A stretch of 46,365 nt of DNA, from NCBI GenBank assembly GCA_041599235.1, contig JBFHWZ010000001.1, positions 1 through 46,365 of the forward strand, in the 5' to 3' direction. Origin of the DNA: Candidatus Woesearchaeota archaeon. GTDB taxonomy: Archaea; Nanobdellota; Nanobdellia; Woesearchaeales; ARS49. The position numbers were made by a program, and so were the translations under genes. A model generated the notes under the pieces. That model saw only the letters and a list, made by a program, of their open reading frames with translations. It was not told where the DNA came from and did no database searches. Positions 29,715 to 35,509 of this stretch are shown here, one piece after another (position 1 is the stretch's first letter; every line of letters begins with the position of its first letter).

Positions 29715-30635
29715 CTAGCGCGCTGGTTTTTGAATAGTATAACTGGTTATAACATTATCAACATACCCATAGTCCATGGTGATGGTCAAGGGCGCAAGGT
29801 AGGTTCCGTATGATTGGTGAATGCCTGTAGGAAGCCTGCAGGCCACTTTGTTTTCTCCTTGGCGCAAGCGCAGGGTTTCAGGAGTGCATTGCAGATAGTC
29901 ATCGCTTAAGCGCGCTCGCACACGTACTTGGTTAAGATTTTGCAAGGGCCTGCCTGAGCACGCGTCTAAGAGCTGTCCGGTGCTGACTACTTGGCCCCTG
30001 CCGCGGTTTTCAATGTGTAGCACAAATTCAGGAGTGATGGTATCAGGGTTAGCATGCGGTAACATGCGCGGTTCAATGTTGGTTACTGCAAGTGGCGCTC
30101 CTTGGCCGCCAGCAAGACTTTGCGCTGTTGGCGCGCAGGTCTTTTGCGGAACATCACCGGTTAAATCTGTATCAACGCAAGTGGTGAGTGTTGCAGTGGT
30201 CTTGTATGGGTAACAGGCTGTGAACTGCAGGGTGGTGCTGTAGCGTTCAGTTAAAGGATCCAGTTTGCCGTTGATTATTCTGAATCCTATGCGTTCTTCA
30301 GTTCCTTGCGGATAAAAAACACTTTTACCTTGCACTGAAAAGCTGCCTGCATCAGAATCAAGCACTGTTGCATACTGGCGTTCAGTGGAAAGTTTGTAAT
30401 ATCCGCCTTGGACATCGCTTGAGCCCTTGTTGTGCAGTATCAGTGTTGCCTGCGAATAGGTTTCTTCGTACACTTCAGGGGGAGGAGCACCTTGCATGAA
30501 CTCCATGACAATGCCTTCAGTGCCATAATTGATTTCAGGCACGTCTATTGTTTCTTTTTCCTCTGGTGGTGCCATTTGCAAAGCACCACAGCCAGCAAGG
30601 AACAAGACTATGATAAGCACGAGCATTTTTTTCAT
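29715..30635 (-). CDS. Lipobox surface protein, paralogue C
   Basis: MKKMLVLIIVLFLAGC lipobox. Shared motifs: GTEGIVMEF, LHNKGSSDV, ACYPYKTTATLTTCV, QGAPLAVTN, HIENRGRGQV, MDYGYVDN. ATGA overlap with the upstream gene. Confidence 0.75.
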   Translation of the reverse strand: MKKMLVLIIVLFLAGCGALQMAPPEEKETIDVPEINYGTEGIVMEFMQGAPPPEVYEETYSQATLILHNKGSSDVQGGYYKLSTERQYATVLDSDAGSFSVQGKSVFYPQGTEERIGFRIINGKLDPLTERYSTTLQFTACYPYKTTATLTTCVDTDLTGDVPQKTCAPTAQSLAGGQGAPLAVTNIEPRMLPHANPDTITPEFVLHIENRGRGQVVSTGQLLDACSGRPLQNLNQVRVRARLSDDYLQCTPETLRLRQGENKVACRLPTGIHQSYGTYLAPLTITMDYGYVDNVITSYTIQKPAR

Positions 30636-32098
30636 GGTTGCTGTTCCACCCTAAAGCCAGTTTGTGTTTCATAGAGGTATTTGTAGTTGGCACTGACTTT
30701 GAAATTGTTGATTGCCAAGGGTGATTCTCCGAGCAAGTCTTGGGTGCTTTCTATCTCAGTATGAGCTCTAAAGCTATAGATGCTCACGTTCTTGAGCTTG
30801 GCAAGGTCTGCTGCAGGAAGCTGATAGACATTAACTAAAGCAGGATCACACACTGCTTGCTCGTCAGTATCTAATGAACTGCAGTCAACAGCTTGCACAT
30901 CAATGCCGTTGATGTCAGTGACTTTCAGCCCTTTAGGAACGTAAAATATGAGCTTGGTTATTTCTTTTATTTTGCCTGTCCAGGCATTGGTGACTGAAGC
31001 GCCAATAGTTGGCCCTTTTTCTCCTTGTGCAATGCCAATTGGCTGTGAGCCAAAGCCCATGCCAATAGCTACAGGTCCTGAAGTGTAAATCGTAGTGGGT
31101 TGTTTGTCTGGAATGCCTTCTAGTGGGTCAACTTGCCGCCTGCGGTAATCACGCAAGCGTTCTTTGTCCATAAAGTAGGCTTTATGATATGCTCGAGTGC
31201 CAAAGTCAAAGTCTGCGCTGAGCTTTCCTGTGTAATAGCCTTCTGGCAAGTTATCGAAGACGCAGTCAATGTCTGTTTCTTCAAACGTCTCCACCCTAAA
31301 CGTTTTTGTTGGGATGATTGCATTTGCAGGGGTGTTGTCTGCTTTGCATTCTATGTTGATGGTTATGGGCTTGTCTAAGGTTTCTGCTTTGAGGTTTGCA
31401 AAGAGCGTGACTGGCTCATTGACAAAGAACCTGCTTGCTGCAGGCCGCAGATTTTGCAGGAACACTCCTAGGCGTTTAGTGGCTGCTTGATCAACTGTGC
31501 CAGTGTAGTAATCACCTTTAGCTATCGCTATTTCTTCTTCAACTGTTTTCCAGAACTGTGCTCTGAAGCCTATGAGTCCTTGCCACATATTTACCGTAGC
31601 TTGGTTGACTGCGTGCAGGAAATATCTGAGCACCATACCCGGACTGAGCATGGGCACATCAGGAATATCATAATACTGATTTGCATAGTCCATGATAGGC
31701 TCACCAAATGAGAAAATCATAAGGCCAAACCAAAACAATAGGAAAAATAAGCCAAACAAGCGCACTTTATTTTTGCCGATTAAGTACCAGACCCATATGG
31801 GGTTGACCATGAAAAACATGATGCTTGTTGCAGTGGTGAACTTCGCAACAAACCCTAAGAGCGGCAAAGCAAGTATGGAAATGAGGGTAACAAAGAATAG
31901 TTCTTTTCTGCTTTCTTTGATAATGCCGCTTGCAAGCCAGGCAACAAATACATATCCGAAAATCGCAACGGACCAGCCAGCAATTGTTATGGGTCTGCCA
32001 GGATGGCGAAGAAAACTGTCAAGGATGTGAACAAGAATAGCAAAAATTAAAACTAAGTATCCTTTCGGCTCTCTATCAACAGGGGTTCTATCAGCCAT
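30632..32098 (-). CDS. Polytopic membrane protein (about 5 N-terminal TM helices) with ~350-aa ectodomain
   Basis: Hydrophobic segments lie between residues ~14 and ~130. The ectodomain has 4 Cys and motifs loosely echoing the lipoproteins (FDFGTRAYHKAY, SGPVAIGMG, VTNAWTGKI, ANYKYLYE). It starts 1 nt after the stop of the upstream gene. Confidence 0.7.
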   Translation of the reverse strand: MADRTPVDREPKGYLVLIFAILVHILDSFLRHPGRPITIAGWSVAIFGYVFVAWLASGIIKESRKELFFVTLISILALPLLGFVAKFTTATSIMFFMVNPIWVWYLIGKNKVRLFGLFFLLFWFGLMIFSFGEPIMDYANQYYDIPDVPMLSPGMVLRYFLHAVNQATVNMWQGLIGFRAQFWKTVEEEIAIAKGDYYTGTVDQAATKRLGVFLQNLRPAASRFFVNEPVTLFANLKAETLDKPITINIECKADNTPANAIIPTKTFRVETFEETDIDCVFDNLPEGYYTGKLSADFDFGTRAYHKAYFMDKERLRDYRRRQVDPLEGIPDKQPTTIYTSGPVAIGMGFGSQPIGIAQGEKGPTIGASVTNAWTGKIKEITKLIFYVPKGLKVTDINGIDVQAVDCSSLDTDEQAVCDPALVNVYQLPAADLAKLKNVSIYSFRAHTEIESTQDLLGESPLAINNFKVSANYKYLYETQTGFRVEQQP

Positions 32099-32099
32099 T

Positions 32100-33248
32100 T
32101 CATTCTACGCGTACTTCTACTTTGACAATGTTAAGTGCTGTCAAAGGAAGAATTTCAATAAAGTTATTGCCTTCAACTATAACAGGGGTGATGTCTCGGG
32201 TAAAGCGCGGTTCTCTTTGGTCAATCACATCTAATCTGCCATTAATATTTGTTTGCGCACCTTTCAATCTGCGGTCATCAACAAACTGAATATCAAGCAC
32301 AATGCTTGCAGCACCTTGCTGCACTGCATCCCACAAGCGTGGTTCAACATTGAAATAATCAATAAAGCCTTTGCTTGGCTTGAGGAAGGTCTTTAAGCGC
32401 AACTGCTCAACACCAAAGCTGCCTCTGCTTGCTCTGATGGTCAGAACATTTTTGCCCAGCTTGAGGTCTTCTTTGAAAATATCTTGCCTGTTCAGGCTTT
32501 CACAGGCAGGAACGCCTGAGAAGATGATTTCATCATTGAGGGTGATTTCCATAGCGCCAACAGTTGCTTGGCTGCAGAGCGGATAAAAGTCTAGGAATGC
32601 GCTTTCAAAATTATTGTATTCTTCTTCTGAAATAGGTATGGTTTCAAGAGCGCGTTGCTTGCGCACATCAGTTACATCACCAATGACTTTGATATCTCTG
32701 AATTCATAAGTCTTGGTTGGTATGCCAAAGCCTTGGACCTCGAATTTGAGCGTGTTTTGTTGGCGCAAGTATTCTGGTCTGATTGATACGGGCGCTGGAT
32801 TTTGAACAGTGATGCTTCCTTCAAAGATTTGGAATCCGTTGATGCTGATAACCAGGGTGCCTTTGTGCACTGGTGTTTGGAAGCTGAGCATGACATTTCC
32901 TGTGTTTGCAGGGTCTGCTACGGGAAAGGTGATTTCTTTGAATGCGTCGCCATAGAGGCCTTTTGAAATAGTGAAGGGGCTGAGCGTGGTGAGTATCTGT
33001 GCTTCGCGCCCTTCTTGTAGGTATATGTTAGGCAGGTAATGGTCGCGTTCGCGTGCTCCAACAAATTCAAGGCTGCCAACTGGTGCGAGCAAAAGCACAT
33101 TGCTGCCTGGTGCTCCTGGCGGTAGTTCTGTTATTTCTTCATCTGCTAGCAGCGCTTCGCGCTCTGCTGGTGGTAAGAAGAGGATGTAAAAGATAAAGAG
33201 AAGGGTGATGATGCCAATGAGTGCTCCTACTTGCGCCTTCTTGTTCAT
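32100..33248 (-). CDS. Bitopic (signal-anchor) surface protein with three-fold internal beta-rich repeat
   Basis: MNKKAQVGALIGIITLLFIFYILF anchor. Repeats: ISINGFQIFEG..QNTLKFEV, ITLNDEIIFSG..GKNVLTIRA, TNINGRLDVI..GNNFIEILP. Start moved from 33317 to ATG 33248 because the minus-strand TATA 33292-33299 and SD GGTGA 33254-33258 lie inside the longer ORF. Confidence 0.7.
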   Translation of the reverse strand: MNKKAQVGALIGIITLLFIFYILFLPPAEREALLADEEITELPPGAPGSNVLLLAPVGSLEFVGARERDHYLPNIYLQEGREAQILTTLSPFTISKGLYGDAFKEITFPVADPANTGNVMLSFQTPVHKGTLVISINGFQIFEGSITVQNPAPVSIRPEYLRQQNTLKFEVQGFGIPTKTYEFRDIKVIGDVTDVRKQRALETIPISEEEYNNFESAFLDFYPLCSQATVGAMEITLNDEIIFSGVPACESLNRQDIFKEDLKLGKNVLTIRASRGSFGVEQLRLKTFLKPSKGFIDYFNVEPRLWDAVQQGAASIVLDIQFVDDRRLKGAQTNINGRLDVIDQREPRFTRDITPVIVEGNNFIEILPLTALNIVKVEVRVE

Positions 33249-33291
33249 ATATGTCACCAGTTTTTGTTTTTCTGTATTCCTTTGTTTTCTG

Positions 33292-33299
33292 TATATAAA
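33292..33299 (-). promoter_or_regulatory. TATA (minus strand CACAAAAGTTTATATA) for the 32100-33248 operon
   Basis: About 47 nt upstream of ATG 33248, with SD GGTGA in the leader. Confidence 0.55.
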
Positions 33300-33311
33300 C
33301 TTTTGTGTAAT

Positions 33312-33329
33312 AAGCAAAAGATTTATATA
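33312..33329 (+). promoter_or_regulatory. BRE/TATA AAGCAAAAGATTTATATA for the Tyr-rich protein gene
   Basis: Identical to the 18-mer at 26370-26387. The leader carries a G6 SD at 33368-33373, 7 nt before ATG 33381. Confidence 0.6.
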
Positions 33330-33380
33330 GGGGTTTTACTATTGTTTGATAGTGAAATTCAATAGCAGGGGGGATTAGTA

Positions 33381-33776
33381 ATGAAGATACAACAGCTATT
33401 ACTTGGACTGATTCTAGCAGTGCTGCTCAGCGCGCCAGTATTTGCAAGCCACACCTATGGTTATAATTATCCAACGTATGGCGGGCACAGCTATGATTAT
33501 TCATATTCTCGCAATTACGATTACACAAGCGTAAGCGAAAACGAGTACCAGCATAGCAGGTCCTACGGCGGACCATACTATCATGCCAATGGCTACAGCT
33601 ATGATTATGGCAGAAGCAGGTCATTTACGTTTGGTTCCTATTCTGAAACAGAGCATGCCTCAGGCAACAGCTATGGCGGCTATGGTGGCAGATCATATGG
33701 CCGATATCACTATCCATACAGCAGCTATGGCAGTCCTTATTACCGTAACAGCAATTACAGATATTACAGCTACTGA
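33381..33776 (+). CDS. Secreted low-complexity Tyr/Gly/Ser/Asn/Arg-rich protein
   Basis: Signal peptide MKIQQLLLGLILAVLLSAPVFA|SH. By my count the mature ~108 aa contain 30 Tyr and no Lys, Leu, Ile, Met, Trp or Cys. There is a strong promoter and SD. Confidence 0.7.
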   Translation: MKIQQLLLGLILAVLLSAPVFASHTYGYNYPTYGGHSYDYSYSRNYDYTSVSENEYQHSRSYGGPYYHANGYSYDYGRSRSFTFGSYSETEHASGNSYGGYGGRSYGRYHYPYSSYGSPYYRNSNYRYYSY

Positions 33777-33778
33777 TC

Positions 33779-34435
33779 ATGAAACAGCAACTACTTATTG
33801 GCGCACTGGTAGTGCTCTTGGTGCTTCCTGCAGCAAGCGCTAAGGTTTTCTATTATTCTGATGAGGTTGATTATCAGGATAACCTGGCGTATGCGCACTT
33901 GAATCACTATGATGGCATTGATGCTGATGACTTTGTTGATTTTGATGATTATACTTGCGTGAGCTTAGATGACCAGCGCGCAATTGCCAATGCCAATCAG
34001 TATGACCATGTTGATCCGTGGACTGCAGCTACTATCAGCAGGCAAGACTTGAAAAAATTGTCACAGGCAGACCGCAATAGGATAGCTGATGAAAATCCTT
34101 ATGATGCTATTGACCGCGATGATGTTGACAGCTTTGATGATTTTTCATGTTCAACGTTGCGGGATTACAACGACTACGCACGAACCAATGCGTATGACCG
34201 ATATGATGAAGCTGACTTTACCCGCTTAGATCACATTGAGATTGCGCAAGAGGTTGGCAAAGACCGATACCACTTTTTTGAGCTGAGCGATTTTGATAGA
34301 TTTAACCTGAACCAGATCAGGTATAGGCCTGTTGCAAAATATCTGTATCCTGGCTATACCTATGGATGGAACGGCTATTATTATAACCAGTATGGCAGCA
34401 GAAATGCCTATCCGGTGTATGGTGCAGTTTACTAA
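33779..34435 (+). CDS. Secreted Asp-rich protein with duplicated YD-ID-DD..FDD-x-x-C module and Tyr-rich C-terminal tail
   Basis: Signal peptide MKQQLLIGALVVLLVLPAASA|K. Units YDGIDADDFVDFDDYTCVSLDD..NQYD and YDAIDRDDVDSFDDFSCSTLRD..NAYD lie 64 aa apart. Tail is YLYPGYTYGWNGYYYNQYGSRNAYPVYGAVY. The gene starts 2 nt after the preceding stop. Confidence 0.7.
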   Translation: MKQQLLIGALVVLLVLPAASAKVFYYSDEVDYQDNLAYAHLNHYDGIDADDFVDFDDYTCVSLDDQRAIANANQYDHVDPWTAATISRQDLKKLSQADRNRIADENPYDAIDRDDVDSFDDFSCSTLRDYNDYARTNAYDRYDEADFTRLDHIEIAQEVGKDRYHFFELSDFDRFNLNQIRYRPVAKYLYPGYTYGWNGYYYNQYGSRNAYPVYGAVY

Positions 34436-34468
34436 AGTTTTTTAAGCCCTTCCTGTTCTTGTTCTCGT

Positions 34469-35509
34469 ATGAAAATCATTGCCTCGAGCTTCAAGAAGGG
34501 CTTTGCAAAGATCATGCCTGAAACAAGTGATGACTTGTGGTATCTTTCGCAGTTAGTTGATGCTGGTGATGTGGTCAAAGGCAAGACTTTGCGCAAGATA
34601 AAGCCCACTGAAGAGGCCAAAGCAATCCGCAAGCCGGTTTTTATGATTCTGAAAGTTGAAAAGACTGAGTTCAGTCCTGAAGCATTGCGTATTCTGGGCA
34701 CTGTGCTCGAAGGCCCTGAGGATGTGCCGCATGGCAGTCATCATACGTTTAATGTTGAAACAGGAACTGTGCTGACTATTGAAAAAACAGAATGGCTGAA
34801 CTATCAGATTAAGCGTTTGAAAGAAGCTGCAGAAAGTGCTGCTCCAAAAATTCTTATTTGTGTATTTGATCGCGAGGAAGCCTTGTTTGCTATGATGAAG
34901 CGCGCAGGCTATGTTGTCCTGGGAACCCTGAAGGGTGATGTTGCTAAAAAGCGCATGGATGAAAAAGGCAAGGAGTTCTGGCCAAGCATCATCAAGCTAC
35001 TTGAGTCCTATGATGCGCGACACAAGCTTGACAAGATTATTCTTGCAAGCCCTGCATTTTGGAAAGAAGAATTGTTCAAAGTGCTTAAGAATGACGCGCT
35101 CAAGAAAAAAATCATTCAAGCTACTTGTAGTGGCGCTGATGAAAGCGCTATTGCAGAAGTGCTGAAACGCGACGAAACAAAACACGCATTGCAGCAGGAG
35201 CGGGTCAGCAAGGAGATTAAGCTGGTTGAGTCAGTGCTGGCTGAAATCAGCAAAGGCGGTGCTGTTGCGTATGGCATGGATGAGGTTGCTAAGGCTGTAG
35301 AAGCAGGCGCGGTCAAAGAACTTCTCGTGACTGATGGGTTTATCAATAAGCGCAGGCTTGCAAACACGTTTAAGCAGCTTGATGTGATTATGAGGGCTGT
35401 TGACAAACAAAAAGGTGAGGTTATTATTGTCAGCAGTGATCATGATGGTGGCCAAAAGCTTGACGGCATTGGCGGTATTGGCGCTCTTTTACGATACAAA
35501 CTCTATTGA
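34469..35509 (+). CDS. pelA: Pelota (aDom34) mRNA surveillance factor
   Basis: N-terminal IMPETSDDLWYLSQLVDAGDVVKGKT followed by eRF1-like domains 2 and 3. Confidence 0.9.
   Translation: MKIIASSFKKGFAKIMPETSDDLWYLSQLVDAGDVVKGKTLRKIKPTEEAKAIRKPVFMILKVEKTEFSPEALRILGTVLEGPEDVPHGSHHTFNVETGTVLTIEKTEWLNYQIKRLKEAAESAAPKILICVFDREEALFAMMKRAGYVVLGTLKGDVAKKRMDEKGKEFWPSIIKLLESYDARHKLDKIILASPAFWKEELFKVLKNDALKKKIIQATCSGADESAIAEVLKRDETKHALQQERVSKEIKLVESVLAEISKGGAVAYGMDEVAKAVEAGAVKELLVTDGFINKRRLANTFKQLDVIMRAVDKQKGEVIIVSSDHDGGQKLDGIGGIGALLRYKLY

Follow-up and report, generated by a model that had tools for sequence, protein, structure and literature searches.

Tandem arrays of short Asp-rich helix-loop units in even copy number are known from EF-hand proteins, from dockerins (F-hand) and from thrombospondin type-3 (TSP3) repeats, and the last two are found in extracellular proteins. 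Calsequestrin and the Asp-rich biomineralisation proteins such as Asprich are low-affinity, high-capacity acidic cation binders. Tyr-centred motifs are found in secreted proteins such as CotC, CotU and CotG of the Bacillus spore coat and the GYR/YLP-motif proteins of the insect cuticle, whose short motifs are thought to mediate protein-protein contacts (PMC2932725). We analysed a stretch of 46,365 nt from a Candidatus Woesearchaeota archaeon (hereafter the window), in which the gene of an Asp-rich protein (the acidic protein) directly follows that of a Tyr-rich protein (its partner), and this pair recalls the systems above without belonging to any of them.

The acidic protein resembles EF-hand, dockerin and TSP3 proteins in its short Asp-rich tandem helix-loop units, their even number and, relative to dockerins and TSP3 proteins, its predicted extracellular location. 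In contrast to these, it has neither the loop D-x-[DN]-x-[DNSG]...[DE] nor DxDxDG, its invariant Asp residues stand at helix ends and not in a 12-residue loop, and its repeat period of ~32 residues differs from type I dockerins, in which a ~22-residue segment with a D-x-N-x-D-G loop and a following helix is duplicated. With calsequestrin and Asprich it shares a very high Asp content and a net negative charge that has been kept, but it is predicted to form a compact helical repeat fold, has a conserved Cys pair, and is neither thioredoxin-like nor a disordered chain; no homology to acidic binders of this type was detected. As in CotC/CotU/CotG and the cuticle proteins, Tyr-centred motifs (YLYPGY, YPVYG) occur, and the partner ends in ..YLPYGY; unlike in those proteins, the Tyr-rich part of the acidic protein is a mere tail on a folded domain, and neither the acidic protein nor its partner matched GYR (PF02756) or YLP (PF02757) at E ≤ 1. 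Finally, as for CsgA and CsgB of curli, adjacent genes encode secreted proteins that may have short aromatic or low-complexity motifs in common, and one protein could nucleate or anchor the other (for CsgF, PMC10133297). The pair differs from curli in that there is no sequence or fold similarity, no dedicated secretion machinery is found nearby and the shared-motif match is marginal.

The acidic protein represents an undescribed family that fits no described family or solved fold. We favour, with a probability of roughly 0.5, the reading that it forms a two-protein assembly at the cell surface with its Tyr-rich partner and that it binds cations through bulk charge rather than through defined motifs.

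An Asp-Rich and a Tyr-Rich Protein Encoded Back to Back

The genes at the center of this analysis and the two divergent upstream genes are the following:

33381..33776, + strand: partner gene, encoding an exported Tyr/Ser/Gly-rich protein of 131 aa (22.9% Tyr)
33779..34435, + strand: gene of the acidic four-repeat protein, an open ORF of 218 aa plus stop
32100-33317, - strand: p405, a signal-anchored protein of 405 aa, divergently transcribed
30632-32098, leftward, divergent from the pair: p488, a multi-pass membrane protein of 488 aa

The partner's stop codon and the start of the acidic gene are spaced by 2 nt. The genome is 887 kb long and 98% complete, and we ranked its ~995 ORFs by composition. 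The acidic protein is the richest of all in Asp (15.1%, against a median of 4.7%) and the partner is the richest in Tyr (22.9%, against a median of 3.1%). The overall proteome is not acidic and the acidity is specific to the gene at 33779-34435, whose folded domain carries a net charge of about -20.

A composition this strongly biased might come from an ORF that is not a true gene, or might yield a repeat that is merely an Asp-rich compositional artefact. Relatives at 24-80% identity, however, have invariant positions in common with the acidic protein, dN/dS for the whole gene relative to its closest relative is ~0.06 with saturated synonymous sites, the AlphaFold2 (AF2) model is confident, and the observed repeat scores were never equalled by column-shuffled controls (see below). 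The shuffle controls, the conservation across the family and dN/dS effectively refute this explanation, whose probability we regard as negligible. The ORF is a real and strongly conserved gene found in a few tiny symbiotic archaea of the Woesearchaeota type.

Phylogenetic Distribution of the Gene Pair

The gene order p488 and p405 (both leftward), then Tyr-rich protein, acidic protein, pelota, TrmB and PheRS (all rightward) was found in a dozen loci. The neighbors are archaeal (pelota, TrmB, the alpha and beta subunits of PheRS, and RFC) and the related loci come from metagenome-assembled genomes of Woesearchaeota and Nanoarchaeia. In related genomes that lack the pair, the p405 gene and pelota directly adjoin, and the pair therefore behaves as an accessory cassette.

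The family is small: a search of 5.8 billion proteins gave nine clusters, and one of 1.84 billion gave 19 representatives. Within the GTDB family of this archaeon, the acidic gene was detected in 16 of 77 genomes and in six of 29 genera. It is present in all eight species of one genus and in only 4 of the 15 species of another, such that even members of the same genus differ in whether they have the pair. Among 300 other genomes of the order, a single distant relative was found (L009:1351-1914 of genome G225, from another family of the order), and it has no Tyr-rich gene upstream. A different secreted protein, of 174 aa, is encoded downstream of the acidic gene at that locus. In the distant subfamily to which it belongs (L009; P0022-P0027), acidic loop 1 is missing and the C-terminus reads ..GYGG(V/Y)ASW(Y/V)R.

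The partner gene lies directly upstream in every locus with an acidic gene of the main family. Both genes occur in the same 16 of the 77 genomes and are always adjacent, with a gap of -1 to +3 nt in all 16 loci; a single additional match, to the partner only, was weak (E 2.8e-4). The most Asp-rich and the most Tyr-rich protein of this genome are thus encoded back to back, and the two genes are strictly co-inherited and come and go together as one cassette. The link with the partner that the earlier note had proposed is borne out by the 2-nt gap, the close spacing in 16 of 16 loci, the strict co-occurrence and the existence of fused relatives (see below).

Export Signal

The mature acidic protein is preceded by an export signal:

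33779..33841, + strand: Sec-type signal peptide, residues 1-21, from the sequence pattern; predicted cleavage between ASA and KVFYY

The N-terminus reads MKQQ-LLIGALVVLLVLP-AASA, with K as the first residue after the predicted cut, and has the n-h-c layout and a small-x-small cleavage site. Conservation across the family begins exactly at position +1 (K22), and among the relatives the N-terminus keeps its hydrophobic pattern and not its sequence. The genome also encodes an archaeal signal peptidase I, which scores over the cut-off of TIGR02228. On these sequence features the acidic protein classifies as a Sec-dependent secreted protein with a type I signal peptide, in agreement with the earlier note, which had called it secreted. 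In the unfused pair, neither protein has a membrane anchor, a lipobox or a known sorting signal.

Four Repeats of About 32 Residues

The acidic protein had been described as carrying two 33-aa units, at residues 44-76 (nt 33908-34006) and 108-140 (nt 34100-34198). The spacing of 64 residues, the identity at 16 of 33 residues and the presence of one Cys in each unit (C60 and C124) were all recovered. Aligned locally with BLOSUM62, the two halves of the protein scored 97, against 34.3 ± 6.5 in 2000 shuffles (maximum 62; none reached 97), and the duplication is conserved in 40 of 40 non-redundant relatives. At the DNA level the units are identical at 56 of 99 bases, which indicates that the duplication is old. 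The duplication is therefore real, but its true period is ~32 aa and it is present in four copies rather than as two 33-aa units: the unit described before consists of the end of an A repeat and the start of a B repeat.

The four-copy period was tested by cutting the family alignment into 32-residue blocks (R1-R5) and comparing them with hhalign. All six pairs of the blocks R1-R4 matched in register with scores of 24-40, and column-shuffled controls gave 7-8 ± 2, with 0 of 100 reaching the observed score. Block R5 had no match to R1-R4 in this comparison of family blocks. These results indicate an (A-B)x2 architecture of the domain, with four repeats of ~32 residues laid out as follows:

33857..33952, + strand: repeat 1 (type A), residues 27-58, from hhalign blocks and AF2 secondary structure; helix 29-41, N-H-Y-D-G-I-D, then acidic loop 1; SDEVDYQDNLAYAHLNHYDGIDADDFVDFDDY
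33953..34048, + strand: repeat 2 (type B), residues 59-90, from hhalign blocks, AF2 and conservation; invariant C60 (33956-33958), helix 63-72, N-Q-Y-D-H-V-D; TCVSLDDQRAIANANQYDHVDPWTAATISRQD
34049..34144, + strand: repeat 3 (type A), residues 91-122, from hhalign blocks, AF2 and conservation; helix 96-105, N-P-Y-D-A-I-D, then acidic loop 3; LKKLSQADRNRIADENPYDAIDRDDVDSFDDF
34145..34240, + strand: repeat 4 (type B), residues 123-154, from hhalign blocks, AF2 and conservation; invariant C124 (34148-34150), helix 127-136, N-A-Y-D-R-Y-D; SCSTLRDYNDYARTNAYDRYDEADFTRLDHIE
34241..34324, + strand: cap at the C-terminal end of the folded core, residues 155-182, from the unmatched R5, pLDDT 67-84 and conservation; conserved G160, R163, D171 and F-N-L, not a fifth repeat
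34325..34432, + strand: disordered Tyr/Gly-rich tail, residues 183-218, pLDDT 30-42

A helix followed by N-x-Y-D thus occurs four times, ending at D45, D76, D109 and D140, and the four ends fit the pattern Y-D-x-Φ-D, where Φ is hydrophobic (YDGID, YDHVD, YDAID and YDRYD). The motif A..[ND].[YFH]D is found four times in the acidic protein, and no other ORF of the genome has it more than once. In the 40 non-redundant relatives, C60, C124, D109, D140 and A134 are conserved at 100%, D98 at 97%, and D76, D31 and A70 at 95% each. An invariant Cys precedes each B repeat (repeats 2 and 4), and most mature members of the family in this set have an even number of Cys residues. Since both Cys are invariant and equivalently placed before the B helices and since Cys counts are mostly even, C60 and C124 probably form one disulfide that staples the two halves together.

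Predicted Structure

The mature protein was modeled by AF2 with 24 sequences, which gave a mean pLDDT of 76.8 and a pTM of 0.70; this model was used instead of one based on only nine sequences, which was poor (pLDDT 55). In the core (mature residues 1-160) pLDDT ranged from 67 to 94 per 10-residue block and was mostly 78 or more. The modeled core is all-alpha, each repeat consisting of a helix of 10-13 residues, the N-x-Y-D cap and a loop with a short helix. A Foldseek search with the model against 350,542 PDB chains returned no EF-hand protein, the best E value being 3.3 and TM at most 0.18, and a search against BFVD yielded no match (best E 1.7). As modeled, and compared with PDB and BFVD, the fold of the acidic domain is undescribed. 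The conserved Asn and Asp positions coincide with the helix C-caps and N-caps expected from the model, and a structural role can therefore explain their invariance.

The C-terminal string that had been likened to the partner in composition corresponds to residues 188-218 and lies within the disordered tail. The tail is 86% identical to that of the closest relative with dN/dS ~0.07 and saturated synonymous sites, and it is as conserved as the core.

Comparison With Known Families and Possible Cation Binding

At E ≤ 1, no Pfam family matched the acidic protein, its partner or 21 relatives of the acidic protein, and sequence searches of PDB with the single protein and with family profiles returned nothing significant. 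A match to tetraspanin-15 (E 0.23) was rejected as weak or signal-peptide-driven. The only database model that scored was NCBIfam NF051431 (Rv0361 family membrane protein C-terminal domain), with an E value of 1e-6 and 28.9 bits, and seven of nine close relatives reached E ≤ 0.1. This score lies under the 37-bit cut-off and is mostly owed to the signal peptide, as the sequence without it gave 15.2 bits (E 0.018); membership was rejected. Rv0361 itself is an uncharacterized surface protein (PMC2891697).

In a model that follows from the earlier note, the D-x-D-D and F-D-D runs of a duplicated module would build specific loops for Ca2+ like those of EF-hand, dockerin or thrombospondin proteins. 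The segments behind the helices are indeed very acidic in this protein, the positions of loop 3 are acidic in 55-85% of the relatives, and four ~32-aa repeats of helix, loop and short helix superficially recall four EF-hands. The canonical signatures, however, are missing. Beyond the absence of any Pfam match at E ≤ 1 to EF-hand (PF00036/PF13499), dockerin type I (PF00404), TSP3 or Excalibur in the acidic protein and the 21 relatives, the EF-hand pattern PS00018, a 12-residue Ca2+ loop of the form D-x-[DNS]-x-[DENSTG]-...-[DE] between two helices, is absent from the acidic protein and occurs in one of 40 relatives. A looser pattern for the EF-hand/dockerin loop is likewise absent from it and found in five of 40. 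DxDxDG, D-x-D-x-D-G-x-x-D-x-x-D of TSP3, D-x-D-x-D-G-x-x-C-E of Excalibur and GGxGxD of RTX repeats are absent from the acidic protein and matched 0 of 40 relatives each. The Foldseek search did not retrieve any Ca-binding fold. In addition, the D-x-D-D and F-D-D positions are acidic in only 30-85% of the 40 non-redundant relatives; those of loop 1 are acidic in only 30-77%, and this loop is deleted in the distant subfamily. The invariant Asp residues belong to the YD at the helix ends and lie outside of these runs. The strict motif YD-x-ID-x-DD-x3-FDD-x2-C, which the earlier note had suggested searching for, is confined to 3 of 40, namely the acidic protein and the two relatives nearest to it. 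The reading as EF-hand-, dockerin- or thrombospondin-like loops is thus unsupported, given the absence of a Pfam match, of a canonical loop pattern and of a solved Ca-binding fold, and we consider specific loops of this kind very doubtful.

Another explanation is that each of the four helix ends with N-x-Y-D-x-Φ-D is the site of one divalent cation, which would make the 32-residue unit a new type of metal-binding repeat. The four copies of the motif are in register and, as seen above, no other ORF of the genome has its A..[ND].[YFH]D form more than once; the Asp of YD is conserved at 70-100% and the next Asp of D-x-Φ-D at 50-82%. A purely structural role of Asn and Asp at helix C-caps and N-caps would explain these patterns equally well, and we regard metal sites at the helix ends as unlikely.

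The net charge of the acidic proteins ranges from -9 to -29 in 15 of the 16 loci and is -1 in the remaining one (L005). Overall acidity is therefore conserved while individual acidic positions vary, which fits a bulk, low-affinity binding of cations or a purely electrostatic role. Judging from these sequence patterns, cations might be bound via bulk charge or, alternatively, at the four conserved helix ends.

Relationship Between the Acidic Protein and Its Tyr-Rich Partner

The close pairing of the two genes supports, indirectly, a co-assembly of the acidic and the Tyr-rich proteins. A comparison of the family profiles of the two tails yielded a local match over six columns with a score of 13.3, against 7.6 ± 1.6 in shuffles (maximum 12.7), which is marginal. 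The motif PYYxPY is found in both proteins of 10 of the 16 pairs, and this co-occurrence counts as one event because all ten pairs come from a single clade. The acidic proteins that lack the tail (L005, L019 and L014, from two lineages) are paired with the shortest partners. A simple charge attraction between a basic partner and the acidic domain was rejected: the net charge of the partner varies from +1 to -9 across loci and is mostly mildly acidic, such that attraction of this type is not conserved.

Fused relatives provide an additional link. The diverged proteins P0016 and P0029, which are 52% identical, start with a Tyr-rich segment, continue with the acidic domain, a second Tyr-rich segment and a linker rich in Ser/Thr/Asn, and end in a membrane helix; this fusion is a stand-alone gene in another genomic context. 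The fusion argues for a joint function at the cell surface. After removal of the signal peptide, the N-terminus of the fusion showed no significant similarity to the partner family (8 of 100 shuffles reached its score). Other fusion-type relatives (P0017 and P0019) end in ..KYG(F/Y)G(Y/F)RRP..., which echoes the C-terminal ..YGYG..RR.. of the main family and the ..PYGY of the partner. Such an aromatic-Gly ending may serve these proteins as a shared signal for assembly or sorting.

The acidic protein might, alternatively, be a dedicated extracellular chaperone that solubilizes an aggregation-prone Tyr-rich partner in the manner of CsgC/CsgE and plays no structural role itself. The strict pairing and a translational coupling that leads to about 1:1 synthesis are compatible with this, and a charged folded domain with a partner-like aromatic tail is what a holdase requires. 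The fused relatives, however, tether the acidic domain permanently to Tyr-rich segments and to the membrane, and a structural role therefore fits better than that of a transient chaperone, which appears rather improbable.

We also considered enzymatic cross-linking of the Tyr residues, as in dityrosine coats of the CotC/CotU kind. Searches of the 98%-complete genome for Cu-oxidase_3 (multicopper oxidase/laccase) and for DyP peroxidase gave nothing, and the controls did respond. Cross-linking by enzymes of these two kinds is thus without support, and non-covalent assembly is the simpler assumption. Tyr residues might still be cross-linked by an oxidant of the host or of abiotic origin.

Under the two-protein surface assembly that we favour, one two-gene message would yield both proteins, and both would be exported via the Sec pathway. 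The acidic protein would comprise a folded all-alpha A-B-A-B domain, whose two Cys would form one disulfide joining its halves, and a disordered Tyr/Gly-rich tail of ~36 residues. Outside of the cell, the two proteins would assemble non-covalently via their aromatic segments into a coat or matrix at the cell surface, and the acidic domain would give this coat a dense negative surface holding divalent cations by bulk charge and not by canonical Ca2+ loops. Within this model, we infer the disulfide, the physical co-assembly, the surface location of the unfused form and the cation binding.

A bolder reading can be drawn, in which the repeats constitute a previously unseen extracellular 32-residue helix-loop fold whose four N-x-Y-D-x-Φ-D ends bind divalent cations and which, with the partner, builds a cation-loaded, self-assembling coat on these ultra-small archaea; this coat would differ in occurrence among species of a single genus and take part in attachment to host cells or in shielding from them. 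We consider this speculative and not probable. DPANN archaea live attached to other cells and, to our knowledge, almost nothing is known about their surface proteins. If the pair does form a surface coat or adhesive matrix, it would represent a new building principle for archaeal envelopes and a small target for expression and study (197 and 108 mature residues). The newness applies to the family and the fold, not to any demonstrated mechanism.

Candidate Transcription Signals

Several candidate signals were read from the sequence around the pair:

33322..33329, + strand: candidate archaeal TATA box, TTTATATA
33368-33373, + strand: G-run, putative Shine-Dalgarno site
34438..34443, + strand: TTTTTT run, putative signal 3 nt past the acidic stop

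The TATA-like TTTATATA stands 52 nt before the ATG of the partner. The acidic gene and pelota are spaced by 33 nt (34436-34468 of the window), with the ATG of pelota at 34469. The T6 run may signal termination in the archaeal manner, serve a leaderless pelota as a TATA-like element, or do both. The T6/TTTTTTAA element lies ~26 nt before the ATG of pelota, which suggests a leaderless pelota transcript with a TATA element overlapping the upstream terminator signal. On these signals, the Tyr-rich and the acidic genes would form a bicistronic unit followed by a leaderless pelota. A scan for sigma-70 promoters and terminators was set aside as inapplicable to an archaeon.

Additional Observations at Related Loci

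The N-termini of p405 and its relatives (L005, L025 and L026) have the form (K/R)-(G/A)-Q... ahead of a hydrophobic stretch (KKAQVGALIGIITLLFIFYILFLPP), and are as similar to the class III (pilin-like) signals of archaea as to a simple signal anchor. In another genome of the same GTDB family (L029:818-1441 of G017), a lone secreted protein of 207 aa is encoded just upstream of pelota. This protein is 24% Tyr, very Asn-rich and prion-like, starts with EYGYGRSR... and has no acidic partner. The slot upstream of pelota seems to host varying Tyr-rich secreted proteins. Finally, the genome of this archaeon encodes a small paralogous family of 100-140 aa (C4:30132-30443, C6:7267-7584, C21:6854-7285 and C2:23247-23657), whose members begin with a membrane helix, continue with segments rich in Gly and Tyr (GTGGY..G..K.YGG..) and rank just behind the acidic and Tyr-rich pair in Tyr content.
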